DNA of 64,000 nt from a phage. Numbering within the stretch: position 1 is the first letter of the stretch; each line of letters opens with the position of its first letter. Shown here piece by piece: positions 37,848 to 58,780 of the stretch. The DNA lies in the NCBI GenBank assembly GCA_018175075.1, contig GCA_018175075.1_4100.1; one strand, given 5' to 3'. A program made the translations under genes and the position numbers. The notes under the pieces were generated by a model. The model was not told the DNA's origin and searched no databases. It saw only the letters and a program-made list of their open reading frames with translations.

Positions 37848-38027
37848 ATGCAAGAATACTATATAGAACACATAAGCATTAAAGACCGTTTCATGTACGA
37901 CACCTTCGTGAAGTACTACAACCTGGCAACTAACAGTACTAAAAATATTAATCTCAATAGCTGCATTCATCACGCACTAACAAAAGATAATCCCTTCAGG
38001 GAAATCCTCGCACTAGCATCTGTATAA
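37848..38027 (+). CDS. small protein, family S (S9)
   Basis: ATG 37848 (MQEYYIEHIS); track start upstream overlaps S8. Confidence 0.5.
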   Translation: MQEYYIEHISIKDRFMYDTFVKYYNLATNSTKNINLNSCIHHALTKDNPFREILALASV

Positions 38028-38037
38028 AGGAAACCAA

Positions 38038-38697
38038 ATGAAACTTAATGCACACAGCAAACAATACCTTAAGCACTTTAAGTACCTCAACAGTATTCAA
38101 GCAGAATCTTTTACACCAGCATATACGTATCACCCAAATGTACTAAAGAAACGAAATAAAAAGAAAAAATCCAGAAATGTTCTCGTATCTAAGAACCTCA
38201 AATCGTACTTGAAGAAAAATAATATAGCTCTTGCTTTTATTAATATCTATAATACTGATTTAAAAGTATTGAGTACTAATACCAGCACAAAAGCACTAAA
38301 GAATGCATCTATCTATATACACATGGATAATATCCCGTGCACTATAATTCTATCTTTCGGGAATGTATACTTCTTCGGGAATTGTAATAGCACCCATGAT
38401 ATCAGTACTGCACAATTCCAAATCGGCGATATGTACTGCATGGGTTCAGAAAAAATACACGATAACATGCACTTCTTCCAAAAGCAACGTACTAACGAAA
38501 CTGATACAGTACTGCAATTCCTCAAAGAACTAGAACACAAAGAATTATCCGAGGAAGAAGAATTCATGTACAGTACTGTAATCGATAATCCAGAACTCTA
38601 TAAAAACGCGTACAAACTAACAAAACATGTACAGGAACTTATCAGTACTGATAAGAAATTTCATCACCTCATTACGTATATTTCAAACTATGTATAA
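38038..38697 (+). CDS. hypothetical protein inside family S array
   Basis: 219 aa, AAGGA RBS; Lys-rich N-terminal part. Confidence 0.55.
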   Translation: MKLNAHSKQYLKHFKYLNSIQAESFTPAYTYHPNVLKKRNKKKKSRNVLVSKNLKSYLKKNNIALAFINIYNTDLKVLSTNTSTKALKNASIYIHMDNIPCTIILSFGNVYFFGNCNSTHDISTAQFQIGDMYCMGSEKIHDNMHFFQKQRTNETDTVLQFLKELEHKELSEEEEFMYSTVIDNPELYKNAYKLTKHVQELISTDKKFHHLITYISNYV

Positions 38698-38872
38698 AGA
38701 ATACTACAAAGATAAAATCCCAATGCATCTACAACACCATATACCAAACGTTGCATTGGGTATCAAAGATCACGCAAAGATAATGTTCCAACAATGTACT
38801 AAGTACACGCTCATATACGATGATAATCCATATATGCTGTACTACGTAGTAATGCTAACATTCAGGTACTAA
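38690..38872 (+). CDS. small protein, family S (S11)
   Basis: MYKEYYKDKIPMHLQ; C-terminal LTFRY. Confidence 0.5.
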   Translation: MYKEYYKDKIPMHLQHHIPNVALGIKDHAKIMFQQCTKYTLIYDDNPYMLYYVVMLTFRY

Positions 38873-38873
38873 T

Positions 38874-39053
38874 ATGAATACTTATAAAGAATTCTACCTC
38901 TCGTACCTTAATTCCGATATAGTAACATCCAATACATTCAGTACTAAAATTATCTATAATGAATTAATGAAAGAATGTATTAAAGGTGCTATTAACCCTA
39001 AAGATACGTATGACTTGTACTATGCAGTACTAACCCTTGTTTTCACGAAATAA
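38874..39053 (+). CDS. small protein, family S (S12)
   Basis: 59-aa ORF below track cutoff; MNTYKEFYLSYL. Confidence 0.45.
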   Translation: MNTYKEFYLSYLNSDIVTSNTFSTKIIYNELMKECIKGAINPKDTYDLYYAVLTLVFTK

Positions 39054-39061
39054 CACATAAT

Positions 39062-39253
39062 ATGAATAACCACAAAGAATACTACATAGAGAAACTCCCA
39101 ATGTATCTCCAACACCTTGTACCAACAGAACCATTGGGTATAGAAAAAAACTACGAAAAAGACTACTTCATTCAGTGCACTAAATCCTCGATATATATTG
39201 AAGACTATAATCGAGTACTGTATCACATCCTTTTACTAATATATAGGTACTAA
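39062..39253 (+). CDS. small protein, family S (S13)
   Basis: MNNHKEYYIEKLPMYLQ..LLIYRY. Confidence 0.5.
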   Translation: MNNHKEYYIEKLPMYLQHLVPTEPLGIEKNYEKDYFIQCTKSSIYIEDYNRVLYHILLLIYRY

Positions 39254-39254
39254 T

Positions 39255-39437
39255 ATGCACAAAGAATACTACACACAATTTCTCCCCAGCATTTTTGAAC
39301 ACTACGCCAGATACAAAGTCCCTATGGATAACGATTTGGCAGTACTGGGATTCAATAACTGCATAGAACGAAGTATAGAAAATAGTAGTAGTTATGACCA
39401 GCTATATAACACTATCCTACTTATATTCAGGTACTAA
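39255..39437 (+). CDS. small protein, family S (S14)
   Basis: MHKEYYTQFLP..LLIFRY. Confidence 0.5.
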   Translation: MHKEYYTQFLPSIFEHYARYKVPMDNDLAVLGFNNCIERSIENSSSYDQLYNTILLIFRY

Positions 39438-39438
39438 T

Positions 39439-39627
39439 ATGCATAAAGAATACTACACAAAATATTTCCCAATGTACCTCAGTACTAATCTATTAGATAA
39501 ACCTCGCGGTATCAATGCACAAAACGATAAAGTGTATTTTACTATGTGTACTAAAGCATGTATACTAGATTTTGACAGCTACCATCGAGTACTGTATCAT
39601 ACCCTGTACCTAGCTTTCGTATTCTAA
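39439..39627 (+). CDS. small protein, family S (S15)
   Basis: ATG 39439 (MHKEYYTKYFPMYL) right after S14 stop. Confidence 0.5.
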   Translation: MHKEYYTKYFPMYLSTNLLDKPRGINAQNDKVYFTMCTKACILDFDSYHRVLYHTLYLAFVF

Positions 39628-39636
39628 AAGAACAAT

Positions 39637-39822
39637 ATGCATAAAGAATTCTACTTAAGCCATCTCGATCTAAACTCCCAAATGCTTATACCACTAATCC
39701 CAATAGATATCAAGGATAAGAAAAATACCGAACAATTCATTTACCATACACAGTGTGCGATCACCCCAAATTACATTCCATATGAATTGTACTACATTAT
39801 CGCCCTAATATATAGGTACTAA
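39637..39822 (+). CDS. small protein, family S (S16)
   Basis: MHKEFYLSHL..LIYRY. Confidence 0.5.
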   Translation: MHKEFYLSHLDLNSQMLIPLIPIDIKDKKNTEQFIYHTQCAITPNYIPYELYYIIALIYRY

Positions 39823-39823
39823 T

Positions 39824-40009
39824 ATGCATAGAGAATACTACACACAATTTGTTAAAGGGAACTACAAACATGCCGTACCCAGAACCCCTTTAAATTCTCA
39901 TGACCCAAGTACTATATTCTTGTTTAATGACGCAATACGTACAGTACTCAATACTAAAGATGAAGATGTGCAGTACGTATTCTTACTATTACTTATATAC
40001 AGACACTAA
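39824..40009 (+). CDS. small protein, family S (S17)
   Basis: MHREYYTQFV..LLIYRH. Confidence 0.5.
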   Translation: MHREYYTQFVKGNYKHAVPRTPLNSHDPSTIFLFNDAIRTVLNTKDEDVQYVFLLLLIYRH

Positions 40010-40014
40010 CTAAT

Positions 40015-40224
40015 ATGAATAAAGAACATAAAGAATTCTACTCCAAATACATAAGCCCCTCAGAACAAATGTTTCTAAGAACTACTCCACCTTTAAGTAC
40101 TAATACATTTTTCGGCAGAGTATGCTACAATAATTGTATTCAAATGACTTTAAACGCAAACGAAGATGGTAACAGTACTAACCTGTACTCAGGTATCATA
40201 GGTATACTATTCCTGTATGAATAA
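40015..40224 (+). CDS. small protein, family S (S18)
   Basis: MNKEHKEFYSKY..; paralog of S3. Confidence 0.55.
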   Translation: MNKEHKEFYSKYISPSEQMFLRTTPPLSTNTFFGRVCYNNCIQMTLNANEDGNSTNLYSGIIGILFLYE

Positions 40225-40408
40225 TTACAAAGACTTCTATTTGAATACACTACCTACTGTACTTTCTCTAAGTGCTCAATGTAAAATCCCGCTGGATAAT
40301 GCTTACGCCAGATATAGCTATTCCATAACTGTTAATCGATGTATAGAGAATCATTGCAGTACTAACACTAGTACTATCATATTAATTAATAGAGAATACT
40401 ATGTATAA
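40217..40408 (+). CDS. small protein, family S (S19)
   Basis: MNNYKDFYLNTLP. Confidence 0.5.
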   Translation: MNNYKDFYLNTLPTVLSLSAQCKIPLDNAYARYSYSITVNRCIENHCSTNTSTIILINREYYV

Positions 40409-40592
40409 AAACTTCTATATAAGTAAACTAAAAGAAAATGAACAAGTATGGATTAGATCTATAATTCCACTGGCATTTAATAGATATGCATTTAACAGAT
40501 GTACCGAGATTGCTATAGACCCTTATAATATTAAAGAGAATGTACAGTATAATCAGTACTACTATATCTTAATGCTTATATATAGAAAGTAA
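40401..40592 (+). CDS. small protein, family S (S20)
   Basis: MYKNFYISKL..LMLIYRK. Confidence 0.5.
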   Translation: MYKNFYISKLKENEQVWIRSIIPLAFNRYAFNRCTEIAIDPYNIKENVQYNQYYYILMLIYRK

Positions 40593-41003
40593 TTAAACAC
40601 ATAGAGACAGGGGAAGCTCCTAGTGAACAACCTTTATGTACAGGCGAATTGTTAAAATTCAGCCTGGACAAATGCGATCACTAGGATTCTCCCCAGGCTA
40701 AACCCCGTAATCATAGGTAGTCATAAGTAATCATATATAAACATTTATATGAGCACCGTAGAATCACAGAATGATTATATATGATTCAGTACTGATTAGT
40801 ATAGACAAGATTGCTCAAGAATGCACGGAAATGTGTGTGAATGATTCAGTACTGATATCCCACTAAGTAGGCAGAGGAAGTCTGCCGTACTTTGTAGTTT
40901 CCAAGCTCCTTTTCCATTTTGCAAATTACATCAAATGTAATCAAAAGTAATCACACAATGATTAGTACTGAATTATTACTTTCACCTTAATTACAATTAC
41001 CCT

Positions 41004-41023
41004 TTTACCCTTCGGGGTAAAAT
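41004..41023 (+). other. perfect 8-bp hairpin with UUCG tetraloop in noncoding island
   Basis: TTTTACCC-TTCG-GGGTAAAA. Confidence 0.4.
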
Positions 41024-41230
41024 TCCATTACCCCTTGAGGCTCCAGCAAAAAGTTGGTTAGTACTCCATCCTAAATCTCGATCCTAAAAATTTTGGAGTA
41101 CCTATGAAATAAAAGTTGGATCTTCGAAAGTTGAAATTTACGTTGGGACGTTTATGATTTGTGGGATATAATGATGTTTGTAGTCGGGTAGTTCTCAAGA
41201 ATATCAGTACTGAATGATGAAAGAAAGCTA

Positions 41231-41385
41231 TTGACTTTATGATTCAGTACTGTATAATGTTTTACATAGAGAGATGAGTTGCCGCAAACAATTCATTCAC
41301 TCTACTTCCTGTCGTGAGACAGTACAGAAAGATAGTTCCTCCTATGGGTGGTACATCTTTTAGAACCTCTTTTTTCGTAATATGA
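41231..41385 (+). ncRNA. candidate small transcript: promoter TTGACT/16/TATAAT, no ORF of 60 aa or more, T-run at 41371-41376
   Basis: TTGACT 41231-41236, TATAAT 41253-41258; only a 29-codon ORF downstream. Confidence 0.25.
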
Positions 41386-41441
41386 ACAGTACTGATATTA
41401 ACAGAATGGTGTCAGTACTGATTTTAATTTAATGCATTATG

Positions 41442-41461
41442 CCACCAGCACAAGCTGGTGG
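41442..41461. repeat. inverted Chi-octamer hairpin
   Basis: CCACCAGC-ACAA-GCTGGTGG. Confidence 0.5.
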
Positions 41462-41587
41462 ATTCCCTCTAACAGTATTCAGTACTACATGATGGTCTTC
41501 ATCCTCCTAGGGTAACATAGTGAGGGCTATGATGGCAGTACTGAATACTCCCTTTCAAAAGATAGATCTATGGTATAGTACTGACGG

Positions 41588-41775
41588 ATTTTGGGCGTAG
41601 TTACCCTGGATGGATTTTGGGCGTAGATATGTCTAGCCCTCCAGAAGTCTGGAAGTAAAGATGGCTATCCATCTAGACGGCTAAACGGCTAGATTTCTGG
41701 ATGGCTGGATGGCTAGACGTTTGGACGGCTAAACGGCTAGATGGTTACACGTCTGGAAGTATAGACGGCTAAATC
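41588..41775. repeat. iteron-like direct repeats
   Basis: ATTTTGGGCGTAG x2; GACGGCTAAACGGCTAGAT x2 (41676-41694, 41724-41742); GTCTGGAAGTA x2; reiterated GGCTA/GATGG units. Confidence 0.5.
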
Positions 41776-41994
41776 AAAATTTTATTTTGTTTTTTCCAAT
41801 AGTTCCCCTACCGCGTGGGGATAGTTTCCCCGCAGTATCTGGTGTTAGATTTTTCTGAATCTGGAATCATTATCTTATAAACTGGGGGCAATGTCAACGG
41901 CCTGGACGGATATTTTTAAAAATTTTTTCAGTACTGAATTTTGGGCGTAACTATGCACCCGGTGGGCTGGAGTCTTTCTCGACTTGATGGAACT

Positions 41995-42022
41995 ATTATA
42001 CAGTACTGGAAAAATAAAGCAA
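41995..42022 (-). promoter_or_regulatory. minus-strand promoter TTGCTT/16/TATAAT
   Basis: read as reverse complement. Confidence 0.35.
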
Positions 42023-42209
42023 TACCCTGGATGAAAAAAGTTTTAATTAATTTGCTTGCCATCCTGGGCCGGACTATGGTACTATAATTCAGTACTGAGA
42101 AAGTGCGTTAACCTGCTAGGGTGCGGGAGTGTATCCTTTTTTTATATCTTGAATTTTGGGCGTAATTCCGCACCCTCTGGGGTTTCCGCTTTCTCGCGTC
42201 TATGTAGTA

Positions 42210-42237
42210 ATTATACGCTTTTTCAGGATCAAGTCAA
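42210..42237 (-). promoter_or_regulatory. minus-strand promoter TTGACT/16/TATAAT
   Basis: read as reverse complement. Confidence 0.35.
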
Positions 42238-42390
42238 TACCTAAAAACAAATAATTGAAAATAATTTAACGCGTTTAAACGGCCCGTAACGCCCTGGAAT
42301 GATTAGAATGGTGCAAATGTATAGCTTAGGTGTATTAATGCGTTAGAATGCGTCTGAGGCCGTTTTATGGGGTGTAGTAGTGATTTGGTT

Positions 42391-42480
42391 GATTCAGTAC
42401 TGAATAATAGTACTCCTATATAGAAAGATAGTTCCCCTGGATTGATTCAGTACTGAATAATAGTACTCCTATATAGAAAG
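42391..42480. repeat. tandem direct repeat, 37-bp unit at 53-bp period
   Basis: GATTCAGTACTGAATAATAGTACTCCTATATAGAAAG at 42391-42427 and 42444-42480. Confidence 0.6.
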
Positions 42481-42512
42481 AAAACTATTTTAAAAGTACA
42501 TGTAGAAAGTAC

Positions 42513-42571
42513 TTGCACCGTACTGATAAAAGCGTATAATGTTTTACATCGAGAGCGGGAACACTTCCCGC
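42513..42571 (+). promoter_or_regulatory. A-type promoter/stem-loop cassette
   Basis: TTGCAC/16/TATAAT + GCGGGAA-CAC-TTCCCGC. Confidence 0.55.
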
Positions 42572-42586
42572 TACACTTTAAAAGAG

Positions 42587-42958
42587 ATGAAAACGATGGC
42601 GACTCAAATCAATAAAATCATGCTTAACCTGGTAAACTTCCGCGATGAGATGAAAGGTCTTCCGGCTGAAACTGTAAAAATTCACATTGCAGCTTATCGG
42701 GAACTTATTGCAATGTTGCCGCTTAAGCGTGAACAATACGCCGCTACTTTGATGCTGGATTCAATGATCCATGTAATGATCTCAAATGATTTAACGATGG
42801 TTTATCAGTACATGGGAGAAAATTTCGCGGTGTGTAGTAAGCCAGTACCAGGGATGGCAACTACTGAGGAATTGCACGGTTTAAATTTAAAGCAAGATGC
42901 ATGGGATAATATGCCTCGTTTCCTGGTATGGGCTGACAGTGGCAAAATTTACAAATAA
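42587..42958 (+). CDS. hypothetical protein
   Basis: ATG 42587 after the stem-loop; track start 42539 is the ATG inside the -10 box. Confidence 0.55.
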   Translation: MKTMATQINKIMLNLVNFRDEMKGLPAETVKIHIAAYRELIAMLPLKREQYAATLMLDSMIHVMISNDLTMVYQYMGENFAVCSKPVPGMATTEELHGLNLKQDAWDNMPRFLVWADSGKIYK

Positions 42959-42972
42959 GTTTAATAAAGTAC

Positions 42973-43031
42973 TTGCAAACTATGTTTAATGGCGTATAAT
43001 GTTTTACATCAGGTGGGGAATAGTTCCCCAC
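42973..43031 (+). promoter_or_regulatory. A-type promoter/stem-loop cassette
   Basis: TTGCAA/16/TATAAT + GGGGAA-TAG-TTCCCC. Confidence 0.55.
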
Positions 43032-43051
43032 TATATAAGAGGATTAAAAAA

Positions 43052-43291
43052 ATGGCTAAATCAAAAATGTTCTTAGGTCACAAAAACAAAACTCATTGGA
43101 ATGTAAGCCTGTGGATTAATAACGATGAGGGATTGTATCGGTTGGCCCTGGATTTTATTAACGACAACACTAATCGCAATGATGCGGCCCGTCATATGAT
43201 GTTATTTTTAGAACAGACTGGACAAGATAAAACACCGGACGGATTCAAATATAGCACTACTGCGATCCGTGCGGCGATGGTTGGAATGTAA
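43052..43291 (+). CDS. hypothetical protein (paralog of 45092 gene)
   Basis: AAGAGGA RBS; shared ..GHKNKTHWNVSLWINN..TPDGFKYSTTAIRAAMVGM. Confidence 0.6.
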   Translation: MAKSKMFLGHKNKTHWNVSLWINNDEGLYRLALDFINDNTNRNDAARHMMLFLEQTGQDKTPDGFKYSTTAIRAAMVGM

Positions 43292-43381
43292 TAGAATAGA
43301 ATTTATTTAAAGTACTATCGCAAAAAATGATAGTACTTTATAATAGTGTTTTATTCATACACCAACGATAAGGGCAACAGC

Positions 43382-43645
43382 ATGAATATTAAGTATTTTG
43401 CGACGCGTGAACAAGCTCGGATCGCTGCACGCCAGGACGGGGCAACGTTTAAAGATATGGGCGTACAATCGGAACGTGGTAAACGTTGGGCCATTGTAAA
43501 GCGTAGTACCGCCAGATCATTACAGTACTGGTTAGCGGCCTTAAAAAGTCCCGATAGTGTATCGCGTCGAGTGGTAGAAATAAAGCTCGACCGAAAGGGC
43601 AACCGCGTGACCGTGTACCGTACTAAAAAGATTGCAGTACTATAA
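43382..43645 (+). CDS. hypothetical protein (paralog of 56658 gene)
   Basis: AAGGG RBS; shared KYFATREQARIAAR..DRKGNRVTVY. Confidence 0.55.
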   Translation: MNIKYFATREQARIAARQDGATFKDMGVQSERGKRWAIVKRSTARSLQYWLAALKSPDSVSRRVVEIKLDRKGNRVTVYRTKKIAVL

Positions 43646-43653
43646 AAAAGTAC

Positions 43654-43711
43654 TTGCAAACTCTGTTTAATGGCGTATAATGTTTTACATCGAGAGCGGG
43701 AACACTTCCCG
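43654..43711 (+). promoter_or_regulatory. A-type promoter/stem-loop cassette
   Basis: TTGCAA/16/TATAAT + GCGGGAACACTTCCCGC. Confidence 0.55.
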
Positions 43712-43733
43712 CCTATAACCTGGAGTAATAAAA

Positions 43734-43964
43734 ATGACTAATATGTATATGACTGAAGTTAAAACCGTAAAAGATACTACCACAAATAAAGTTACTTACT
43801 TACAGCGGATCTGTGGTGTATGGCAACGTATCAGCAAATCAAAGTACTATAAATTAACATCATATGCAAACCGTTCTGATTCATTCAGTACTGAAATAAA
43901 AGGTAATAAAGTACACCAATACGGCACTTATTATTATTACAGCCTGGACGCGATTGCAGTATAA
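43734..43964 (+). CDS. hypothetical protein
   Basis: 76 aa, GGAG RBS. Confidence 0.55.
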   Translation: MTNMYMTEVKTVKDTTTNKVTYLQRICGVWQRISKSKYYKLTSYANRSDSFSTEIKGNKVHQYGTYYYYSLDAIAV

Positions 43965-43994
43965 GCAGTTTACAAATCTTTACAATTGCCGGTA

Positions 43995-44023
43995 TTGACT
44001 TATTTTGTCAGTACTGGCATAAT
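43995..44023 (+). promoter_or_regulatory. sigma70-like promoter TTGACT/17/CATAAT with no ORF downstream
   Basis: faces minus promoter 44139-44167 across an inverted-repeat element. Confidence 0.4.
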
Positions 44024-44039
44024 GTATTCATTGGCAGAT

Positions 44040-44135
44040 AAGCCGTAGCCCATAGGGTGCGGGAGTGTATCTATAGAAAAATTAGTTTAGTATAGTTACA
44101 ATTGTGCACCCGGTGGGTTAGCTGTTGTCATGGGG
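44040..44135. repeat. GGGTGC inverted-repeat element
   Basis: CCCATAGGGTGC .. GCACCCGGTGGG arms about 50 nt apart; related copies at ~41950, 42110-42180, 46520, 51365, 53020, 55365, 58625, 60890. Confidence 0.5.
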
Positions 44136-44138
44136 TAT

Positions 44139-44167
44139 ATTATGCCAGTACTGGATAGTGCTGTCAA
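44139..44167 (-). promoter_or_regulatory. minus-strand promoter TTGACA/17/CATAAT
   Basis: read as reverse complement; convergent with 43995 promoter. Confidence 0.4.
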
Positions 44168-44211
44168 TACTTTTTTAATATTCAGTACTGAAAACTATTT
44201 TTAAAAAGTAC

Positions 44212-44357
44212 TTGCAAACTATGTTTAAAGGCGTATAATGTTTTACATCAGGACGGGGAACGAAATAAGTAACTTCCCGTTAAGTAGCCCAGGAGTAAGG
44301 CACACGAAAAACTCCCCTGATAAAATAGTTTGACAATTGTTTTTAAAAGCGTATAAT
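44212..44357 (+). promoter_or_regulatory. tandem promoters flanking a conserved leader (copy 1)
   Basis: TTGCAA 44212/TATAAT 44234; leader hairpin; second TTGACA 44330/TATAAT 44352; homologous block at 55428-55571. Confidence 0.5.
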
Positions 44358-44389
44358 ACTTACATCAACTACTGAATGAGGGTTACAAA

Positions 44390-45001
44390 ATGAAAACTAT
44401 CACTACTACTACTTTCGTTATGGATTTTTCTGAATTGAACGCAGAACAAAAAACGTCAGCTATCGAACTGGTTCGGGAACGTGAAAAAAACTCAAACGAC
44501 AATTATTTTTCTGAAAGTGAAATTGAATACTATAAAGAAACAGTACTACCGGAATATGGCATTAATGACGCTGAAATACAATTCAGTGGCTTTTGGTCCC
44601 AGGGTGACGGTGCATCAATCAGTACTGACCACGTTGACGCAGTGAAGTTTTTACGCAAGGTAAGAGCATTAACTAAGTATCGCTCAATCCGTCACCTGCT
44701 GAATGAAGATGATTTGGCGATGAGTGTAAAGCGTTCGCACTCCCACTACTCGCATGAGAATACTGTAAGCGGGTACATTGAATCGGCTTACACTGATTTA
44801 ACCGCAAAACAAGAAACGTTAGTTAATGAGCTTGAGGAACTACTCACTGAAACTATTCGTGAATTGTCCCGCAAGTTGTACCGTGATTTAGAGAATGCAT
44901 ATGAGGATCAATTCACCACTGAAAACATTACGGCACTGATTGAGGGTAACGAATATCAATTCAATGTTATTGATGGCGTAGTAGAATCAATCGAATATTA
45001 A
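44390..45001 (+). CDS. hypothetical acidic protein
   Basis: 203 aa, GAGGG RBS. Confidence 0.65.
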   Translation: MKTITTTTFVMDFSELNAEQKTSAIELVREREKNSNDNYFSESEIEYYKETVLPEYGINDAEIQFSGFWSQGDGASISTDHVDAVKFLRKVRALTKYRSIRHLLNEDDLAMSVKRSHSHYSHENTVSGYIESAYTDLTAKQETLVNELEELLTETIRELSRKLYRDLENAYEDQFTTENITALIEGNEYQFNVIDGVVESIEY

Positions 45002-52666: not shown

Positions 52667-52695
52667 GCCCACTGGTTAACGCTGGTGGGCTTTAA
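52667..52695 (+). terminator. terminator-like hairpin containing Chi octamer
   Basis: AGCCCACTGG..CTGGTGGGCT then TTTAATT. Confidence 0.5.
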
Positions 52696-52764
52696 TTCAT
52701 TACCCTATACAATGCCAGTACTAAACCGTTTATCTCGTTAGAATGCATTACAGGACGTTTGACA

Positions 52765-52962
52765 ATGATTAGCATGAAATCAGTACAAAAACAAATAGAA
52801 ACATTATCAAAAATTAAACGTAAACAGTACTCGTTAGAATATACAATCAATGGTAACTATCATCTAATGAAAGAAAATAATTTTATAGTCATTGATGAAT
52901 CATTGCAAATCATTAGTATAGTACTGAAAGCATTAATTAATGATAGAAAAAAATTAAAATAA
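52765..52962 (+). CDS. hypothetical AT-rich small protein
   Basis: ATG 52765 (track used TTG 52759); weak RBS. Confidence 0.35.
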   Translation: MISMKSVQKQIETLSKIKRKQYSLEYTINGNYHLMKENNFIVIDESLQIISIVLKALINDRKKLK

Positions 52963-52966
52963 TCTA

Positions 52967-52995
52967 TTGACAATATCCTCCAGTACTGGCATAAT
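52967..52995 (+). promoter_or_regulatory. sigma70-like promoter TTGACA/17/CATAAT
   Basis: hexamers read directly. Confidence 0.45.
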
Positions 52996-53057
52996 ACTTA
53001 CATCAAGACGAGAACGTCACTAACCCATAGGGTGCACAAATGTAACTATATAACATC

Positions 53058-53130
53058 GATCAATAAATGATCAAAAAAGTACTGGATCAATTTAGCATAA
53101 GGCGTATAATTCTGATCAATTCTTGATCAA
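53058..53130. promoter_or_regulatory. cluster of five co-oriented GATCAA sites around a -10 box
   Basis: GATC at 53058, 53069, 53085, 53114, 53125; TATAAT 53104-53109. Confidence 0.4.
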
Positions 53131-53291
53131 AGGCAATATACGCAGTTGAATTTATATAGACAGTACAAAGGCGTTACTATCCGTGGTAATGCTGGTGGAT
53201 ATGTAGTATCATGTGGTTTGAATAAGATTAGCACTAGTAGTATTATTGTAGCATTACAGTACTATAGTATTTTTATAATGAGGTTAAAATA

Positions 53292-53549
53292 ATGGCAGTA
53301 GGATACGCGAAAGACGGGGCCGAACAAGACGAGATTAACGCAGTGATTCAGGCCGCCGTTAACCACGCTAGAAAGCAAATTAACGCACAAAGAGAATCAC
53401 TAGTACATTGCCTCGACTGCGGCGATAAAATCCCTGAGAATCGACGCCAGGCCGTTATAGGGTGCATGTATTGTATTACTTGCCAGGCGGATCATGATAG
53501 TACTTTTAAAAGAGATCCGCGTAATTGTTGGCATAGATCTATGAGATAA
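53292..53549 (+). CDS. DksA/TraR-family C4 zinc-finger protein
   Basis: CLDCGDKIPENRRQAVIGCMYC matches the TraR-type CxxC-IPE-RR-CxxC finger. Confidence 0.7.
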   Translation: MAVGYAKDGAEQDEINAVIQAAVNHARKQINAQRESLVHCLDCGDKIPENRRQAVIGCMYCITCQADHDSTFKRDPRNCWHRSMR

Positions 53550-53556
53550 AAAGTAA

Positions 53557-53584
53557 TTGACAGTACTGAAAGATAGTGTATAAT
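53557..53584 (+). promoter_or_regulatory. sigma70-like promoter TTGACA/16/TATAAT
   Basis: hexamers read directly. Confidence 0.5.
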
Positions 53585-53613
53585 GTTTTATATCTTAAAT
53601 GAGGATAGAAATC

Positions 53614-53970
53614 ATGGGAATACAACATATCACGCGTACTACTGACAATGGCGAGATCACTGGTTATCAGGTACAGGGCAAAGTAGCACAATTGCAGTAC
53701 TGGTTTGTTAAACGTGGAATCATTGCACCGGATCTTGATTATGACCGTGTTGCTTTCATTGATTCTCTTTATGTTGATCCTGATAGTCGGGGCAATGGTG
53801 AAGGTAACGAATTAATGAATGCCTTTATCGATGCCGCCGATGATTCAGATTGTATCATCTTAGAATGCGATACGGGAGAAGATAACGCCTTTAATCTTAA
53901 AGAATGGTACGAAGGTTTCGGATTCGAGGTATTGATAGATAGTGAATATCCTATCATGATTTTATCATAG
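53614..53970 (+). CDS. putative GNAT-family acetyltransferase
   Basis: IDSLYVDPDSRGNGEGNELMNAF matches the acetyl-CoA-binding R..G.G motif; ATG 53614 with GAGGA RBS. Confidence 0.5.
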   Translation: MGIQHITRTTDNGEITGYQVQGKVAQLQYWFVKRGIIAPDLDYDRVAFIDSLYVDPDSRGNGEGNELMNAFIDAADDSDCIILECDTGEDNAFNLKEWYEGFGFEVLIDSEYPIMILS

Positions 53971-53973
53971 TAC

Positions 53974-54030
53974 TTGCATTTAGTTTTCAGTACTGTTATA
54001 GTACTTACATCAAGGGGAAACATCTTCCCC
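53974..54030 (+). promoter_or_regulatory. A-type promoter/stem-loop cassette
   Basis: TTGCAT/17/TATAGT + GGGGAA-ACATC-TTCCCC. Confidence 0.5.
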
Positions 54031-54048
54031 TACTAAGAGGAAATGAAA

Positions 54049-54237
54049 ATGGAAAACTTATCAAGTATTTTAGTACAAGATGATTTCGGTAATCCTGGAA
54101 GTGCTATCATAGTTCGGGGCAATAAAGCAACGTTTGTTATTGCTGGTGGACCCGTACAGCGTAGCATTAAAAATAATGCTGTTACCATTAATAATGTACG
54201 CTATCGCTTAGATAAAGAATTAATTCATAAACTGTAA
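54049..54237 (+). CDS. hypothetical protein
   Basis: ATG 54049 is 9 nt after GAGG (54043 also possible). Confidence 0.5.
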   Translation: MENLSSILVQDDFGNPGSAIIVRGNKATFVIAGGPVQRSIKNNAVTINNVRYRLDKELIHKL

Positions 54238-54264
54238 TATTAATTTAATAGAGGATAACAATAA

Positions 54265-54588
54265 ATGTACATTCATACTACTATCACAAAGGAAGTCCGT
54301 TGCCAGTTCGAAAGTATTCCGGGCGTATGTTTCATCACTGGTACGTTTTCCCCTGGTGATCGTGATAATCCAGTACTGTTACAATTACGCCATCCATCAT
54401 GGGATAAAGCATTTGATCTACCGTTGAATGAATTCGCAACTACTGCTGAAAAGTACATTAAAAATATTCGCGAGAATGATCGACTATTCATTAATGCTTT
54501 TAGTGATTCCGCGTTAAGCGAGATCCACGGTGTATTGGTTGCAATCATGGAATCAATGGAGAAAACTAAATTCAAACAAGGTGAATAA
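54265..54588 (+). CDS. hypothetical protein
   Basis: 107 aa, GAGGA RBS. Confidence 0.6.
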   Translation: MYIHTTITKEVRCQFESIPGVCFITGTFSPGDRDNPVLLQLRHPSWDKAFDLPLNEFATTAEKYIKNIRENDRLFINAFSDSALSEIHGVLVAIMESMEKTKFKQGE

Positions 54589-54594
54589 AAACTA

Positions 54595-54654
54595 TTGACA
54601 AGATAATCTAGTACTGTATAATAAGTTACATGAAGGGGAGAAATGATTCTCCCC
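54595..54654 (+). promoter_or_regulatory. C-type promoter/stem-loop cassette
   Basis: TTGACA/16/TATAAT + GGGGAGAAATGATTCTCCCC. Confidence 0.55.
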
Positions 54655-54671
54655 ACTGAGAGGAAAGAAAA

Positions 54672-54884
54672 ATGCAAGGTCAACTAATCGTTCGTAAATG
54701 GTCTGATACTAACGCTAAACCGTGGGATGTACAATACATCGGCCCCAATGGTGAATCCAGATATCAACCAGGTGTAACGCATAGTACTGAGCAATTCGCC
54801 GCCGCTCATCGTGAACGTCTGTTACAATCAATGCAGCAAGGTTCCGGTGAAAAATTCATTCAGGATCATTGGCTGAAAGATTAA
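54672..54884 (+). CDS. hypothetical protein
   Basis: 70 aa, GAGAGG RBS. Confidence 0.55.
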   Translation: MQGQLIVRKWSDTNAKPWDVQYIGPNGESRYQPGVTHSTEQFAAAHRERLLQSMQQGSGEKFIQDHWLKD

Positions 54885-54891
54885 AAAGTAC

Positions 54892-54949
54892 TTGCACAGT
54901 ACTGAATAAAGTGTATAATGTTTTATATCGGAAGGGGAATAGTTCCCCT
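54892..54949 (+). promoter_or_regulatory. A-type promoter/stem-loop cassette
   Basis: TTGCAC/16/TATAAT + AGGGGAATAGTTCCCCT. Confidence 0.55.
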
Positions 54950-54970
54950 CCCAACAAAGAGGAAAGTATA

Positions 54971-55144
54971 ATGATCCAAGTAGAATTATCAGTACTGAAA
55001 GATCTGTTTTATCGGTTAGGTACTAATGGCGAGTATCCTAAAAGTGATACCGCAAAACTTTTTGTATCACTCGACTTATGGCAACGCGAACAATTAGTAA
55101 TGTCCTGGCGTAAAGGTAAAGCAGATCGCGAGGTGAAAGCATGA
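54971..55144 (+). CDS. small hypothetical protein
   Basis: 57 aa from ATG 54971 with AAGAGGA RBS. Confidence 0.45.
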   Translation: MIQVELSVLKDLFYRLGTNGEYPKSDTAKLFVSLDLWQREQLVMSWRKGKADREVKA

Positions 55145-55290
55145 AAGAATTCTTATTCGAAGTAGTGTTTCAAGGTGTCGGTAGTAACCAACTGATTCGA
55201 TCAAGTGGTTACAATGTCAACCAGGCATGGAATAACATTAAACAAATGTACCCGAACGCTATCACCTATCGCAACCCGAAAGAAGTTTAA
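55141..55290 (+). CDS. small hypothetical protein
   Basis: 49-aa ORF, ATGA-coupled to upstream gene. Confidence 0.4.
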   Translation: MKEFLFEVVFQGVGSNQLIRSSGYNVNQAWNNIKQMYPNAITYRNPKEV

Positions 55291-55301
55291 AAATAATTGA
55301 A

Positions 55302-55338
55302 AAAGGGATTGACTCCGGTCAGTCCCTTTGCTATTATA
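55302..55338 (+). terminator. intrinsic terminator with embedded promoter hexamers
   Basis: GGGATTGAC-TCCG-GTCAGTCCC + TTTG; TTGACT 55309 / TATTAT 55333. Confidence 0.6.
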
Positions 55339-55427
55339 TACGCATAGAAACAAATCAGCCCACCGGGTGCATAAATGTATCTATTGTTTGCTGGTGGCTA
55401 GTACTGAAAACTATTTTAAAAAAGTAC

Positions 55428-55571
55428 TTGCATTGTACTTAGAATAAAGTATAATGTTTTACATCAGGACGGGGAACGAAACAAGTAACCCCGTTAAGTA
55501 GTCCAGGAGTAAGACATACGAAAAACTCCCCTGATAAAATAGTTTGACAATAGAAAGTAAACGAGTATAAT
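55428..55571 (+). promoter_or_regulatory. tandem promoters flanking a conserved leader (copy 2)
   Basis: TTGCAT 55428/TATAAT 55450; hairpin ACGGGG..CCCCGT; second TTGACA 55544/TATAAT 55566. Confidence 0.5.
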
Positions 55572-55604
55572 ACTCACATCAACCACTGATAAGGAAACAT
55601 AAAA

Positions 55605-55880
55605 ATGCGGATTCTACTGACAGCTAACGAAATCGAACAAGTACTGACTACTAACCTGGAAGACTGGAAACGTGAAGCAGATATCCAGGCGGTTCAACAG
55701 CTTAACGATGAGTTAACGCCGGATGACTTAAGCAAGATTGTAGATCCTCAATTCTACGAAGATATCCACGACACCGCGTTAAGCGTCGAGGATGTACTAG
55801 ATAAGCACTACATTGATATTGATTTGCAGGTTTACGGTCGTAAAAACTTTATCACTATTCACGACATTTACAATAATTAA
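55605..55880 (+). CDS. hypothetical acidic protein
   Basis: 91 aa, AAGGAAA RBS. Confidence 0.6.
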   Translation: MRILLTANEIEQVLTTNLEDWKREADIQAVQQLNDELTPDDLSKIVDPQFYEDIHDTALSVEDVLDKHYIDIDLQVYGRKNFITIHDIYNN

Positions 55881-55883
55881 GTA

Positions 55884-55945
55884 TTGACAAAGTATCTTAG
55901 TACTGTATAATAGTTTACATCGAGTGAGGGGAAACGGTTCCCCTC
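55884..55945 (+). promoter_or_regulatory. C-type promoter/stem-loop cassette
   Basis: TTGACA/16/TATAAT + GAGGGGAAACGGTTCCCCTC. Confidence 0.55.
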
Positions 55946-55968
55946 CTAACAAAGAGAGAGAAATAAAA

Positions 55969-56151
55969 ATGGCTAAGTGCACTATCTGCAAGAAAGAAAT
56001 AGTATTAGTTCCAAGTGCCCGTGAACGTGCCGCTCGGTTCGGTGGCAAAGCGTCAGACTATACAAAAATGTTTACTACCCATGCAGCTTGCCAGGTAGCA
56101 AAACGTTCACAAGAAAGCGTAGAATTAATGCGTAAACTTTCCAAAAAATAA
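55969..56151 (+). CDS. small Cys-containing protein
   Basis: 60 aa from ATG 55969; CTIC..HAAC. Confidence 0.5.
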   Translation: MAKCTICKKEIVLVPSARERAARFGGKASDYTKMFTTHAACQVAKRSQESVELMRKLSKK

Positions 56152-56154
56152 GTA

Positions 56155-56215
56155 TTGACAAAGTATCTTAGTACTGTATAATAGTTTACATCAAGTGAGG
56201 GGAATGGTTCCCCTC
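56155..56215 (+). promoter_or_regulatory. C-type promoter/stem-loop cassette
   Basis: near-identical to 55884 cassette. Confidence 0.55.
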
Positions 56216-56238
56216 CTAACTAAAAGAGAGAAATAAAA

Positions 56239-56562
56239 ATGGCTATGATCCTTGCCCAGAAAGTAGAATTGAAAATTGTAACCTCATTTGACATTAACGT
56301 TAATCGGTGGACTGATTCACACGGCAATACTTACCACTCTTGCTACGTGTCTGCGTTAATTGGCGACCGCTGGGAAGACCTGGGACATGAAACCTTTACA
56401 TACGGTTACGGCACACAAGGCGAATACACGGGCTTGGAGATCATTAAAGAAACCGTTATAGGTTTCAACCCGAAAGAAAAAGTTATTCACCAAATCGAAA
56501 AAGAGATTAACAAAGAAATAACAGTTCGATACAACGATGTAAAACGTAAGAAAGACATGTAA
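56239..56562 (+). CDS. hypothetical protein (paralog of 49417 gene)
   Basis: 107 aa. Confidence 0.6.
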   Translation: MAMILAQKVELKIVTSFDINVNRWTDSHGNTYHSCYVSALIGDRWEDLGHETFTYGYGTQGEYTGLEIIKETVIGFNPKEKVIHQIEKEINKEITVRYNDVKRKKDM

Positions 56563-56584
56563 TAGAATCCATTTAAAGTACTAT

Positions 56585-56613
56585 TTGACATTGCCCAGAT
56601 AGTACTTTATAAT
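56585..56613 (+). promoter_or_regulatory. sigma70-like promoter TTGACA/17/TATAAT
   Basis: hexamers read directly. Confidence 0.5.
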
Positions 56614-56657
56614 AGACTCTAACTTGTAGTACTAACTTAACTAATAGGATGTATACC

Positions 56658-57053
56658 ATGATTACTAAATTCTACGCTACCCGTGAAGCTGCCCGTATTG
56701 TTGCACGCGAGGAAGGAGCAGCATTTAAAGACATGGGCAAAGATGCACCGAAAGGCCAACGCTGGGCCGTACAGTTCAAAGAGATCTCTGATATTGTGAA
56801 TTCACCTGAGCCAGTACTAACAGCAGCAGAACTAAAACGAGCGGATATGCTGGCGGCAATACTTGACGCACAAGATGAGTTTATCGCTGGTTCTGATATC
56901 AAAGTACAGGTAAACCACACCGCATGGACTCACGCGGATCACCTGGCAAACCTTAAGCGTCCAAGTGAACTGATTCGCAACCAGAAAGAGATCCGACATG
57001 ATCGTAAGGGTAATCGTGTAACAGTATACAGTAAACGCCGCCAGGTTATCTAA
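56658..57053 (+). CDS. hypothetical protein (paralog of 43382 gene)
   Basis: ATG 56658 with AGGA RBS (56649 also possible). Confidence 0.55.
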   Translation: MITKFYATREAARIVAREEGAAFKDMGKDAPKGQRWAVQFKEISDIVNSPEPVLTAAELKRADMLAAILDAQDEFIAGSDIKVQVNHTAWTHADHLANLKRPSELIRNQKEIRHDRKGNRVTVYSKRRQVI

Positions 57054-57076
57054 TAACTTGCAGTACTAACAACACG

Positions 57077-57100
57077 GCGGGATCAGTTCCCGCCTTTTTT
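57077..57100 (+). terminator. intrinsic terminator
   Basis: GGCGGGA-TCAG-TTCCCGCC + T6. Confidence 0.7.
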
Positions 57101-57114
57101 ATAGGACAAACAAA

Positions 57115-57369
57115 ATGATTAAGGTTCAACTATATAAAGATAACATCTTACGGGTACACTATAAAGCACCTCAGAGAATCATCACAAAGGCCGTACAGCT
57201 TGCTAATGAGTTTATTAATGGTAACCTATTACCTAGGAAGTTAAGCAACGGGAAACTGCGTGTAATCGACGTGGACACTAACAACAGGATAGTAATCGAG
57301 AACACAGGAAAGATAAACCTTTATGAGCATCAACAATACAATAAGAAAATAAAACTAATATCACGTTGA
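57115..57369 (+). CDS. hypothetical protein
   Basis: 84 aa, AGGA RBS. Confidence 0.55.
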   Translation: MIKVQLYKDNILRVHYKAPQRIITKAVQLANEFINGNLLPRKLSNGKLRVIDVDTNNRIVIENTGKINLYEHQQYNKKIKLISR

Positions 57370-57394
57370 CAGTACTCAAATGTTTTAGTACTAT
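57366..57394 (+). promoter_or_regulatory. sigma70-like promoter TTGACA/17/TACTAT (duplicated at 57643)
   Basis: ~55-bp block repeated before two adjacent genes. Confidence 0.45.
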
Positions 57395-57422
57395 GTACAC
57401 ATACCAACACGGGAGAAACAAA

Positions 57423-57641
57423 ATGAAATTATCTAAAATCGAAAAGAAAACTATTGATGAAGCAGTTAAGCACGGTTATACCTTTCGTAATGATTCACAT
57501 TTTACCAATTTTCAACAAGGGTATCGTACTATTAAAAAACTAATTGACAAAGGTTTATTAGTTGAAGTCAATAACGGTAACGGTATCGAGTATCAACCAA
57601 CACAAGACGCATTTTATTTTAAGAAATATAATATTATCTAA
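57423..57641 (+). CDS. hypothetical protein
   Basis: 72 aa from ATG 57423 with GGGAGA RBS. Confidence 0.55.
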   Translation: MKLSKIEKKTIDEAVKHGYTFRNDSHFTNFQQGYRTIKKLIDKGLLVEVNNGNGIEYQPTQDAFYFKKYNII

Positions 57642-57642
57642 T

Positions 57643-57670
57643 TGACAGTACTCAAATGTTTTAGTACTAT
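57643..57670 (+). promoter_or_regulatory. sigma70-like promoter TTGACA/16/TACTAT
   Basis: duplicate of 57366 block. Confidence 0.45.
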
Positions 57671-57699
57671 ATGTACATACCAACACGGGGAGAAACAAA

Positions 57700-57942
57700 A
57701 TGATTACTTTAGAAAAACGTATCAAAGAAACTACATCGCTGGTGGAACTGTTAACAGTACTGAAATGTAAAACAACACCATTCAGCACGCCGGACTTTAT
57801 TAATATGGTTGATGTTAATGGTCGCTATCGTATCACGGTCGTGAATGGTGCGGCGAAAGTATTCAGTACTAAAAACACTAAGGAAGTGATCCACGCCGTT
57901 AATGTTAAAAAAGTAGTTGCCATTGATAGTAAAGTACTGTAA
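57700..57942 (+). CDS. hypothetical protein
   Basis: 80 aa, GGGGAGA RBS. Confidence 0.55.
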   Translation: MITLEKRIKETTSLVELLTVLKCKTTPFSTPDFINMVDVNGRYRITVVNGAAKVFSTKNTKEVIHAVNVKKVVAIDSKVL

Positions 57943-57973
57943 GATAGTTTCATTAACTCAAGGAGTAAATGCA

Positions 57974-58558: not shown

Positions 58559-58570
58559 AAAAGATTAAAA

Positions 58571-58606
58571 AAGGGATTGACTCCGGTCAGTCCCTTTGCT
58601 ATTATA
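58571..58606 (+). terminator. intrinsic terminator with embedded promoter hexamers
   Basis: GGGATTGAC-TCCG-GTCAGTCCC + TTTG, then TATTAT. Confidence 0.6.
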
Positions 58607-58698
58607 TATTCATTGAGAGATAACTCACTGACCCATAGGGTGCATAAGTGTATCTATTATATAAGTATTCAGTACTGGAAACTATTTTTAAAAAGTAC

Positions 58699-58760
58699 TT
58701 GCATTGTACTTAGAATCAAGTATAATGTTTTATATCGAGAGGGGGAAATGGTTCTCCCTG
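58699..58760 (+). promoter_or_regulatory. A-type promoter/stem-loop cassette
   Basis: TTGCAT/16/TATAAT + GGGGGAAATGGTTCTCCC. Confidence 0.55.
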
Positions 58761-58780
58761 GTACATTAAGGAATAAAATC

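Follow-up and report, generated by a model that had tools for sequence, protein, structure and literature searches.

In the 64,000-nucleotide stretch analysed here (the window; contig GCA_018175075.1_4100.1 of assembly GCA_018175075.1), the two kilobases at positions 40593-42586 form an island without a credible protein-coding open reading frame (ORF). With a probability of about 0.8, this island is the junction at which the unique DNA of an Asteriusvirus jumbo phage meets the left end of its direct terminal repeat (DTR), and the part of it inside the repeat is a terminal, non-coding leader. This leader is best read as a cis-acting terminal control region that would serve the cutting of the genome end, the handling of that end by RecBCD and Chi, and early non-coding transcription. 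Judged by its nearest relatives in sequence, the source phage is a jumbo coliphage of the PBECO4/121Q/G17 type: the island matches 44 phage records at 88-98% identity, and every one of them is a jumbo myovirus with a genome of 310-385 kb from the PBECO4/121Q/G17 group in the genus Asteriusvirus.

The physical left end of the virion chromosome, which is also the left DTR boundary, lies at the cut 40865/40866, as given by the record ends of relatives. The records of fEgEco12, vB_Ec-M-J, E9.1 and BAU ELP-22 all start at the base that corresponds to 40866, and that of G17 ends there in reverse complement, which makes five independently deposited genomes that begin or end at the same base. Bases 1-400 of fEgEco12 correspond to 40866-41265 at 98.75% identity, and their copy recurs at 353,741, the start of the right repeat in that phage. 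The terminal repeats of fEgEco12, 20,993 bp long, were called by PhageTerm and confirmed with restriction digests (PMC13070987), a redundancy of about 20 kb was independently detected from coverage in G17 (PMC6563267), and the vB_Ec-M-J record annotates its bases 1-21525 as DTR. The right DTR boundary is at 62319/62320, to which both base 1 of G17 and the DTR end of fEgEco12 (base 20,993) map; it falls inside a 220-bp intergenic gap (62170-62390). The DTR thus covers positions 40866-62319 of the window (21,454 bp), and the island is composed of 273 bp of unique DNA and a 1.72-kb gene-free leader that reaches to the first gene (ATG at 42596). In the virion, the chromosome opens on its left side with the leader, and a second copy of the leader forms the inner margin of the right DTR copy. 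An earlier, sequence-only reading had proposed a cluster of small structured RNAs and/or a cis-acting site at this place, and the second half of that proposal has held, as the island contains the physical left genome end and the first 1.72 kb of the DTR.

In an alignment of nine Asteriusvirus genomes (the source phage and eight relatives), the unique-sequence side (40593-40865), which in the virion lies just left of the right-hand DTR copy, has a conserved block from 40641 to 40760. A variable stretch rich in indels follows (40761-40853), and conservation returns in the 12 nucleotides that directly precede the cut, GATATCCCACTA (40854-40865). From 40866 on the sequence is nearly invariant, so that conservation steps up sharply at the cut, the sequence across which is GATATCCCACTA/AGTAGGCAGAGG (the slash marking the cut). 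The context ..AGTACTGATATSCCACTA/AGT is found in Asteriusvirus as well as in RaK2/Muenster, which belong to another genus with a separately called end and have the homologous cut context AAGTACTGATATGCCACTA/AGT. At the right cut, the context CT/TAGC with a TTGGACTATG block exactly 44 nucleotides upstream is common to the source phage, fENko-Kae01 and CBB. The first bases of the genome are part of a terminal snap-back hairpin, AGTAGGCAGAggaagTCTGCCgTACT (40866-40891; DNA fold -6.9 kcal/mol, z = -4.8), that is invariant in the nine genomes, and fENko-Kae01 begins with a different perfect hairpin, TATCTTCTctgtataAGAAGATA. Four of the seven plus-strand copies of GTAATCA in the window flank the left cut: the conserved block of the unique side carries this motif at 40707 and 40727, and a GTAATCA/AATCACACAATGATTAGTACTG repeat block on the plus strand at 40930-40980 mirrors 40707-40793 across the cut. 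It can be proposed, with more confidence than any other step of the mechanism, that the packaging nuclease makes the left genome end at 40865/40866 in replicating concatemers, and that the conserved 12 nucleotides and the GTAATCA repeats on either side, together with the snap-back hairpin at the terminus, constitute the end-processing site.

The absence of genes from the island, which had been noted before apart from one implausible candidate, was borne out. The sole ORF of at least 60 amino acids within 40593-42586 encodes 62 amino acids on the plus strand (42056-42244), begins with TTG and overlies a conserved non-coding palindrome. Equally confirmed was the absence of a transfer RNA (tRNA) signature: an ARAGORN-type scan found no tRNA or tmRNA in the whole window, and no Rfam covariance model matched at E<=1 over 38000-45000. 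The analogy of position with the tRNA and small-RNA clusters of T4-type phages was not supported. The curated records of 121Q, SP27 and phAPEC6 have no annotation across the homologous 2 kb, and other GenBank records annotate 7-12 tiny hypothetical proteins there. When the island was compared with the window by BLAST, only its promoter cassettes had dispersed copies, and the leader blocks were unique. In PBECO4, G17 and others the 2-kb query matches over 3.0-3.4 kb of the record; an insertion in these genomes was considered and rejected, as the spread arises because the terminal promoter cassette also matches a downstream copy, and the non-coding gap there is still about 2 kb.

The leader is at least as conserved as the genes on its flanks, or more so, its identity to the eight relatives being 0.90-0.99 versus 0.82-0.93 for the flanking genes, and it reaches 0.95-0.99 over 40881-41160 and 41561-41800. 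To judge from these alignments, the leader is under purifying selection and old. The block AGTACTCCATCCTAAATC..GATCCTAAAAATTTTGGAGTACC on the plus strand (41060-41102) is 0.97-0.99 identical among Asteriusviruses and was found also in the leaders of fENko-Kae01, 7t3 and Erwinia phage pEa_SNUABM_12. It is not alone in this, as a sensitive search placed pieces of the island near the record starts of phages of other genera, and the leader blocks recur in four other jumbo-phage genera, where they are kept in order and roughly in their distance from the end. This order is common to fENko-Kae01/7t3, Muenster/RaK2 and the Eneladusviruses of Erwinia, Yersinia and Serratia, and partly to CBB. It begins with a hairpin at or adjoining base 1, which is followed by the block AGTACTCCATCCTAAATC..TTTTGGAGTACC, a rightward promoter, an inverted pair of Chi sites (present in some genera only) roughly 0.5 kb inward of the end, and GATTTTGGGYGTA repeats; then come a central array, which consists either of 8-mers of the RRAYGGCT type or of Fur-box-like repeats, the block TTTTCCAWTRG..CCTWCCGCG-hairpin-GCAGWATC, a leftward promoter, and finally a convergent promoter pair around a long palindrome.

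Among the elements of the leader is the inverted Chi pair CCACCAGC-ACAA-GCTGGTGG at 41442-41461, 576 bp from the left end. It had been described before as an inverted Chi hairpin, with coordinates that were exact, and the hairpin does exist (-9.9 kcal/mol, z = -5.1), yet a reading of the element as two real Chi sites is preferable to that as a simple hairpin. RecBCD recognizes Chi in one orientation only, and the minus-strand copy of the pair is oriented correctly for RecBCD entry at the left end. The arms are invariant in eight of nine Asteriusviruses, and fENko-Kae01 and 7t3 have the same inverted pair at a distance of 483 bp from the end. The four-nucleotide loop (41450-41453) is ACAA in four isolates and its reverse complement TTGT in four, which looks like a flipping of the palindrome centre. 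Chi sites in general (GCTGGTGG) are far too frequent in this DNA, with 15 in the window versus 0.66 expected, every one in a different context, and 11 in the DTR of the source phage versus 0.54 expected from a third-order model; seven plus-strand copies at 52681-60949 have the orientation required for an entry of RecBCD at the right end. The DTR of fENko-Kae01 (1-19736; 19.7 kb) has 14 versus 0.63 expected, with 2 in the next 25 kb, and that of Muenster (1-20030) has 8, with none in the next 25 kb (45-64 kb were sampled per genome for Chi and box counts). Chi is thus about 20-fold over-represented and almost restricted to the DTR in three jumbo-phage genera, at about one site per kb towards the right end, where the plus-strand sites begin 1363, 375 and 1089 bp from the right ends of the three genomes; 28 of the 33 DTR sites pooled from the three genera are on the plus strand (p = 6.6e-5). 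The window has three further minus-strand Chi sites at 29285, 29543 and 29798, spaced by about 255 bp in its most GC-rich and most GC-skewed kilobase, which probably reflect a coding motif that is repeated within a gene on the minus strand. The inverted pair would then make up the left-hand part of a polarised Chi set that is restricted to the DTR, an assignment that ranks second in confidence. After ejection, a correctly oriented Chi would halt the degradation by RecBCD from either end and RecA would be loaded, upon which the RecA-loaded DTR copies could pair and recombine to circles or concatemers, as has been proposed for P1. In that phage, Chi sites are clustered in or near the terminal redundancy, where they have been proposed to promote a recombination that depends on RecBCD (PMC12315714).

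The leader is also furnished with promoters of the host type. The rightward sigma70-type promoter at 41231-41258 (plus strand, TTGACT-16-TATAAT, 11/12 consensus positions), which had been noticed before, is of the gene-cassette type (..CAGTACTGTATAATGTTTTACAT) and matches the cassette promoters at 50861, 60548 and 61427, and there is no credible gene behind it. The leftward promoter at 42237-42210, likewise noticed before, is of the same quality (TTGACT-16-TATAAT, 11/12), whereas the other leftward promoter of the sequence-only reading (42022-41995) has a perfect TATAAT and aligns with the promoter family, but has a weak -35 element (TTGCTT) and was not listed by the promoter scan. Two promoters had been missed: a leftward one at 41897-41869 (minus strand, TTGACA-17-GATAAT, 11/12), found by the scan, which is directed towards the hairpin block, the 8-mer array and the end of the genome and the -35 and -10 elements of which are conserved in four genera; and a rightward one at 42056-42085, which forms a convergent pair with that at 42237-42210 around a palindrome (42056-42237), as seen in the scan, in cross-genus alignment and in the fold. 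In the orphan promoters, the -35 and -10 hexamers are invariant across five genera, and the spacers vary.

Some of these promoters belong to a dispersed unit that consists of an UP-like A-tract, a TTGACW-17-TATAAT-like promoter, about 25 nucleotides, and the invariant box CCCAYMGGGTGC. There are 11 such promoter-plus-box units in the window, on both strands, all within the DTR and without ORF (41955, 42119, 42170, 44055, 44106, 46527, 51375, 53030, 55365, 58638 and 60897). The box is restricted to the DTR also in fENko-Kae01 (6 copies) and Muenster (7 copies). According to the alignment of the units, the leftward promoter at 42022-41995 forms one of them with the box CCCACCGGGTGC (the reverse complement of 41955-41966), and this minus-strand unit (41955-42022) is a partial duplicate of the one to its right. 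The core of the unit is the arm sequence of the imperfect palindrome of about 95 nucleotides at 42099-42193 (arms AGGGTGCGG and CCGCACCCT), for which an RNA fold of -38.5 kcal/mol was calculated (z = -4.3). Its orthologues in five genera have z-scores of -2.5 to -6.6 in 8 of 10 cases, -3.8 or lower in 7, with a few compensatory changes in the arms, and two metagenomic relatives have perfect arms of 14-16 bp with a compensatory change. It can be supposed, as the third-ranked step, that host RNA polymerase fires from the five sigma70-type leader promoters and the DTR gene cassettes directly after entry, and that the leader promoters yield short non-coding transcripts, three of them within the 11-member, DTR-only family with the CCCAYMGGGTGC box. 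Related DTRs are known to be transcribed early and with abundant non-coding RNAs, as PA5oct, a distant relative, has two of these in its DTR according to RNA sequencing (PMC7318152). Jumbo phages of Erwinia, Yersinia and Serratia have in their leaders, downstream of a promoter, an exact boxA of the rrn type (GCTCTTTAACAA; at 1407, 708 and 1399 in three records), hinting at host Nus-dependent antitermination of early transcription in those phages; in the source phage, neither the island nor the DTR has an rrn-type boxA.

At the end of the leader, the cassette of the first DTR gene (42513-42595, plus strand) comprises a promoter TTGCAC-16-TATAAT (42513-42540), a hairpin (42555-42571), a ribosome-binding site and the ATG at 42596, with which the 120-amino-acid gene annotated in 121Q begins. 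Cassettes of this type are repeated before many DTR genes. Dozens of unrelated, rV5-like coliphages of 150 kb contain sequences with about 85% identity to the portion 42528-42586, which suggests a shared or mobile early-promoter cassette.

As to the remaining hairpins, z-scores were obtained with 200 shuffles, and three of the four hairpins listed in the sequence-only reading folded better than all of these. Two were real but had been placed one base off, namely the GGCAGAGGAAGTCTGCC hairpin, which is at 40870-40886 (z = -4.8), and the UUCG hairpin, a perfect 8-bp stem with a TTCG loop at 41003-41022 (z = -2.9) that is annotated as a terminator in G17 and has no T-run behind it. The fourth, the AGCCTGG/CCAGGCT stem in the conserved block of the unique side (40661-40699), exists as well but is weak (z = -2.0), with 9 of the 200 shuffles folding equally well. 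An intrinsic terminator, that is a GC-rich hairpin with a U-run, is fitted well in the island only by 42118-42137 plus T7. A conserved hairpin is contained in the block TTTTCCAATAGTTCCCCTACCGCG-[hairpin 41815-41833]-GCAGTATC (41792-41839), known from cross-genus alignments and covariation: the stem sequence of the hairpin differs from lineage to lineage and the pairing is kept (96% of cells paired), 5 of 9 pairs are changed on both sides, the covariation score was reached by none of 500 shuffles, and slid controls collapse.

The leader is furthermore rich in short repeats. An array of 14-16 in-register 8-bp units with the consensus RRAYGGCT (GGCTAGAC/GGCTAAAC type), which had been overlooked, occupies 41651-41775 on the plus strand; its units are CTAG-rich and place stop codons in all six frames. 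Arrays of such 8-mers occur in Eneladusvirus leaders about 700-800 bp from the record start (also at 640-800 and 1-100), in a 1.9-kb non-coding region of the T5-family Aeromonas phage AhSzw-1 (1488-1620), and, as GGCTAGAC/GTTTAGAC 8-mers with 8-bp period, at 40-114 of the T7-like podovirus PGT2, 40 bp from its record start. Where the source phage carries the 8-mer array, the leaders of Klebsiella jumbo phages carry Fur-box-like arrays (15-16/19 versus GATAATGATAATCATTATC), with Fur-box-like matches in Muenster (780-900 and 1070-1100) and fENko-Kae01 (690-800 and 1034-1060). In several genera, Fur-box-like sequences are found also in the loop of the convergent-promoter palindrome; a further match is at 1042 in an Eneladusvirus leader, and in AhSzw-1 a Fur-box-like palindrome (1455-1482) accompanies the 8-mer array. 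The source phage itself has no Fur boxes in the island, the best match there being 12/19. Two GATTTTGGGCGTA repeats on the plus strand (41587-41625) are present also in fENko-Kae01, and further copies of this type (AATTTTGGGCGTA) lie at 41937 and 42152. The 53-bp tandem duplication that had been seen before was recovered at 42386-42428 and 42438-42481 (42386-42481, plus strand), each of its two copies with TTCAGTACTGAATAATAGTACT; its copy number ranges from one to three in relatives (one in G17 and UB, three in JNE01). The 8-mer CAGTACTG, which had also escaped notice, is present 12 times in the island and 66 times in the window versus 1.2 expected, but 62 copies are expected from its 7-mers, and since its AGTACT core accounts for the enrichment, selection acts on the hexamer. 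AGTACT is by far the most enriched palindromic hexamer, with 292 copies in the window versus 21.6 expected (13.5-fold), and is densest at 40593-42586; it is enriched in fENko-Kae01 too (186 versus 15). In many early promoters it is placed at the edge of the -35 element (AAGTACTTGCA) or directly ahead of the -10 element (CAGTACTGTATAAT), and it also stands 19 nucleotides before the left cut; it possibly resembles the core of the E. coli SlmA-binding site, GTGAGTACTCAC. The 8-bp array and the dense CAGTACTG/AGTACT sites may be protein-binding arrays for putative partner proteins, with TTCAGTACTGAA and the RRAYGGCT array as candidate binding sequences, which is the step proposed with the least confidence. 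Six other palindromic hexamers (CCCGGG, CCATGG, CAGCTG, AGGCCT, AGCGCT and ACCGGT) are absent from the whole window, in which 2-7 copies of each would be expected, and this absence is consistent with restriction-site avoidance.

Several other explanations of the island have to be weighed. That it is a decayed coding sequence or a neutral spacer that merely happens to sit at a repeat boundary could be thought of in view of the tiny hypothetical proteins in some records, the varying copy number of one repeat and two short variable stretches, but no ORF is conserved, 121Q, SP27 and phAPEC6 annotate nothing, and the blocks persist in genera with almost no other nucleotide similarity; because of the conservation of the leader above that of its flanking genes, this explanation is extremely improbable and can be regarded as excluded. 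More can be said for the possibility that the island consists mainly of clustered genes for small non-coding RNAs, in which strong host-type promoters make early regulatory or decoy RNAs and the position at the terminus is secondary. Small RNAs from the island are indeed plausible, as the orphan promoters are kept across five genera, 11 paralogous promoter-plus-box units are all located in the DTR, the covarying hairpin lies downstream of the 41897 promoter, a hairpin of about 100 nucleotides lies between the convergent promoters, and PA5oct provides a precedent. The RNA half of the sequence-only reading thus is plausible and unproven. There is no match to tRNA or any Rfam family, the units have no clear bounding intrinsic terminators, and RNAalifold gave for an alignment of 16 promoter-plus-box units only a weak, wobble-rich stem of 5 bp without compensatory change, for which reason a single structured small-RNA family was dropped and the box, conserved in sequence and not in structure, looks like a sequence signal. 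An RNA cluster would also leave the terminal hairpin, the Chi pair, the 8-mer array and the GTAATCA repeats unexplained. On the whole, it is doubtful that this is the main nature of the island.

It is still less likely that the island is or contains a replication origin, at which transcription would open the DNA or prime synthesis and the 8-bp array would serve as iterons. A suggestive sign is that the cumulative GC skew reaches its lowest value in the window at about 41 kb, with a switch from negative to positive despite plus-strand genes on both sides; AT tracts lie between divergent promoters (about 41900-41930); the array looks iteron-like; and the origins of T7 and T4 use promoters. The skew change also coincides with a change in gene class, however, the 8-bp period is not a helical repeat, and phages of the T7-like and T5-like kinds, which have unrelated replication proteins, carry the same 8-mers next to their ends or in non-coding DNA. 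Moreover, none of the 12 DnaA boxes (TTWTNCACA) in the window is in 40593-42586, which weakens a DnaA-dependent origin and likewise the membership of the island among injection stop signals of the T5 type. According to this last explanation, the right DTR copy with its approximately 50 early genes would enter first and the transfer would pause at the leader until early proteins have been made. In T5, a 1.2-kb untranslated and highly conserved repeat region straddles the DTR boundary by 270 bp and is a candidate stop signal (bioRxiv 10.1101/866236). The island, too, is a large untranslated, repeat-rich and conserved region at a DTR boundary, which it straddles by 273 bp; the DTR genes carry host-type promoters, and AhSzw-1 shares the 8-mer array and the Fur-box-like palindrome in its non-coding region. 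Yet the paired DnaA boxes that Davison found throughout the T5-type region are absent from the island, no two-step transfer is known from these jumbo myoviruses, the T5 repeat has a different gene layout, and an entry with the right DTR copy first is presupposed. Such a stop signal is quite improbable here. The RNA cluster and the origin could both coexist with the terminal control region.

Some points weigh against the terminal control region itself. The terminus of the source phage was placed by comparison with relatives, to which it has 94-99% identity at the site. Promoter-like sites are not more numerous in the island than in shuffled sequences (10 versus 9.6+/-3.1), and the support for its promoters therefore comes from the conservation of their hexamers across genera and not from the raw count. 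The poor fold of the promoter-plus-box units also counts here, and the palindrome and the covarying hairpin could act as DNA instead of RNA. With regard to Chi, the leaders of Erwinia and Yersinia phages and of Muenster lack the pair, and the first correctly oriented Chi of Muenster is 6.4 kb from the left end; the plus-strand bias agrees with the direction of the genes and with the positive GC skew in the DTR, and may in part be due to composition; and which end enters first, and that RecBCD has contact with the ends at all, are assumptions, as end-protecting proteins or RecBCD inhibitors could nullify any role of Chi. It would go one step further, and is unlikely to hold, to regard the whole DTR of Rak2-like jumbo phages as a self-contained 'first-contact' module that manages host RecBCD and RNA polymerase during the initial minutes after infection, with the leader as its control region. 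Its parts would be the polarised Chi array with the inverted pair, the 11 strong host-type promoters, each driving a short non-coding unit that ends in the invariant box CCCAYMGGGTGC, and the convergent-promoter palindromes. Chi might, for example, turn RecBCD into a genome-circularising recombinase, the units might serve as roadblock sites or give rise to decoy or primer RNAs, and the leader might double as a T5-like pause site in a stepwise DNA entry.

Directly before the island, at 38874-40592 on the plus strand, lies a tandem array of about nine paralogous ORFs of 59-69 amino acids (MHKEYY...LIYRY type) in AT-rich DNA, the GC skew of which is negative although the coding is on the plus strand. 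A Pfam search with ten neighbouring proteins gave two domains of unknown function and nothing informative.

In case of the terminal control region, it makes a difference that most of the approximately 45 public genomes of this group have arbitrary start points, and some have spurious tiny ORFs over the island, as the recognition of the island as the true chromosome end corrects both coordinates and annotation. In a genome of 350 kb, the genes of which are mostly unknown, the leader is one of a small number of places at which the DNA itself reveals function, with a conserved cut site, Chi sites placed for RecBCD from either end, and host-type promoters that precede any phage protein. If the Chi set works as proposed, lytic fixed-end jumbo phages would use a host 'self' signal to survive and to recombine their ends, and this would have a bearing on the host range in phage therapy via recBCD-linked defences and would offer handles for engineering.

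Parts of this arrangement resemble known systems. At the left end of T7, the terminal repeat is followed by adjacent short-repeat arrays, the early promoters A1-A3 and the leftward A0, and the leader is like it in having a fixed left end, short direct-repeat arrays and then strong promoters for host RNA polymerase; in T7, however, the repeat has 160 bp and the leader about 0.5 kb, and T7 is not known to have a Chi set or convergent-promoter palindromes. The T7-like PGT2 shares the GGCTAGAC-type 8-mers at 40-114, which does not imply a homology of the array to T7 itself. T4-type phages have mobile early-promoter/stem-loop cassettes (PeSL), with a sigma70 promoter and a stem-loop before many small early genes, and the cassettes of the source phage, of which the orphan 41231 promoter is one, are like these in their make-up. 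Most of the island is not cassette DNA.

The closest counterparts are the deposited boundaries of fEgEco12, vB_Ec-M-J, G17, Muenster, fENko-Kae01 and CBB, which agree in the left-end base and in the right end, and the deposited Asteriusvirus-type DTRs, which have about 21 kb as well and are full of small early genes. The DTR coordinates as such are already public, but these records and papers give coordinates only and not the internal anatomy of the leader; the words 'promoter' and 'non-coding' do not occur in the fEgEco12 paper (PMC13070987), and literature searches for CAGTACTG, AGTACT in jumbo phages, concatemer-junction repeats and RaK2 transcriptomics found nothing on the island region. 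In the literature searched, the leader anatomy, the DTR-restricted polarised Chi set with its inverted pair, and the promoter-plus-box family thus seem to be undescribed. The T5 region shares with the island that it is a kb-sized untranslated region with direct repeats, inverted repeats and palindromes, that it is better conserved than nearby genes, and that it straddles the DTR boundary by about 270 bp (bioRxiv 10.1101/866236), and a T5-family phage even shares the 8-mers, but the island has no DnaA boxes, lies at the other repeat edge by record orientation, and belongs to a different phage family. With P1 (PMC12315714, citing Subramaniam and Smith 2022), the source phage shares the concentration of Chi in redundant DNA, for which an end recombination by RecBCD and RecA has been proposed. 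P1 packages by the headful mechanism from pac and has permuted ends, whereas the source phage has fixed ends, and unlike in P1, its Chi set is polarised towards the right end and includes a conserved inverted pair at the left end.

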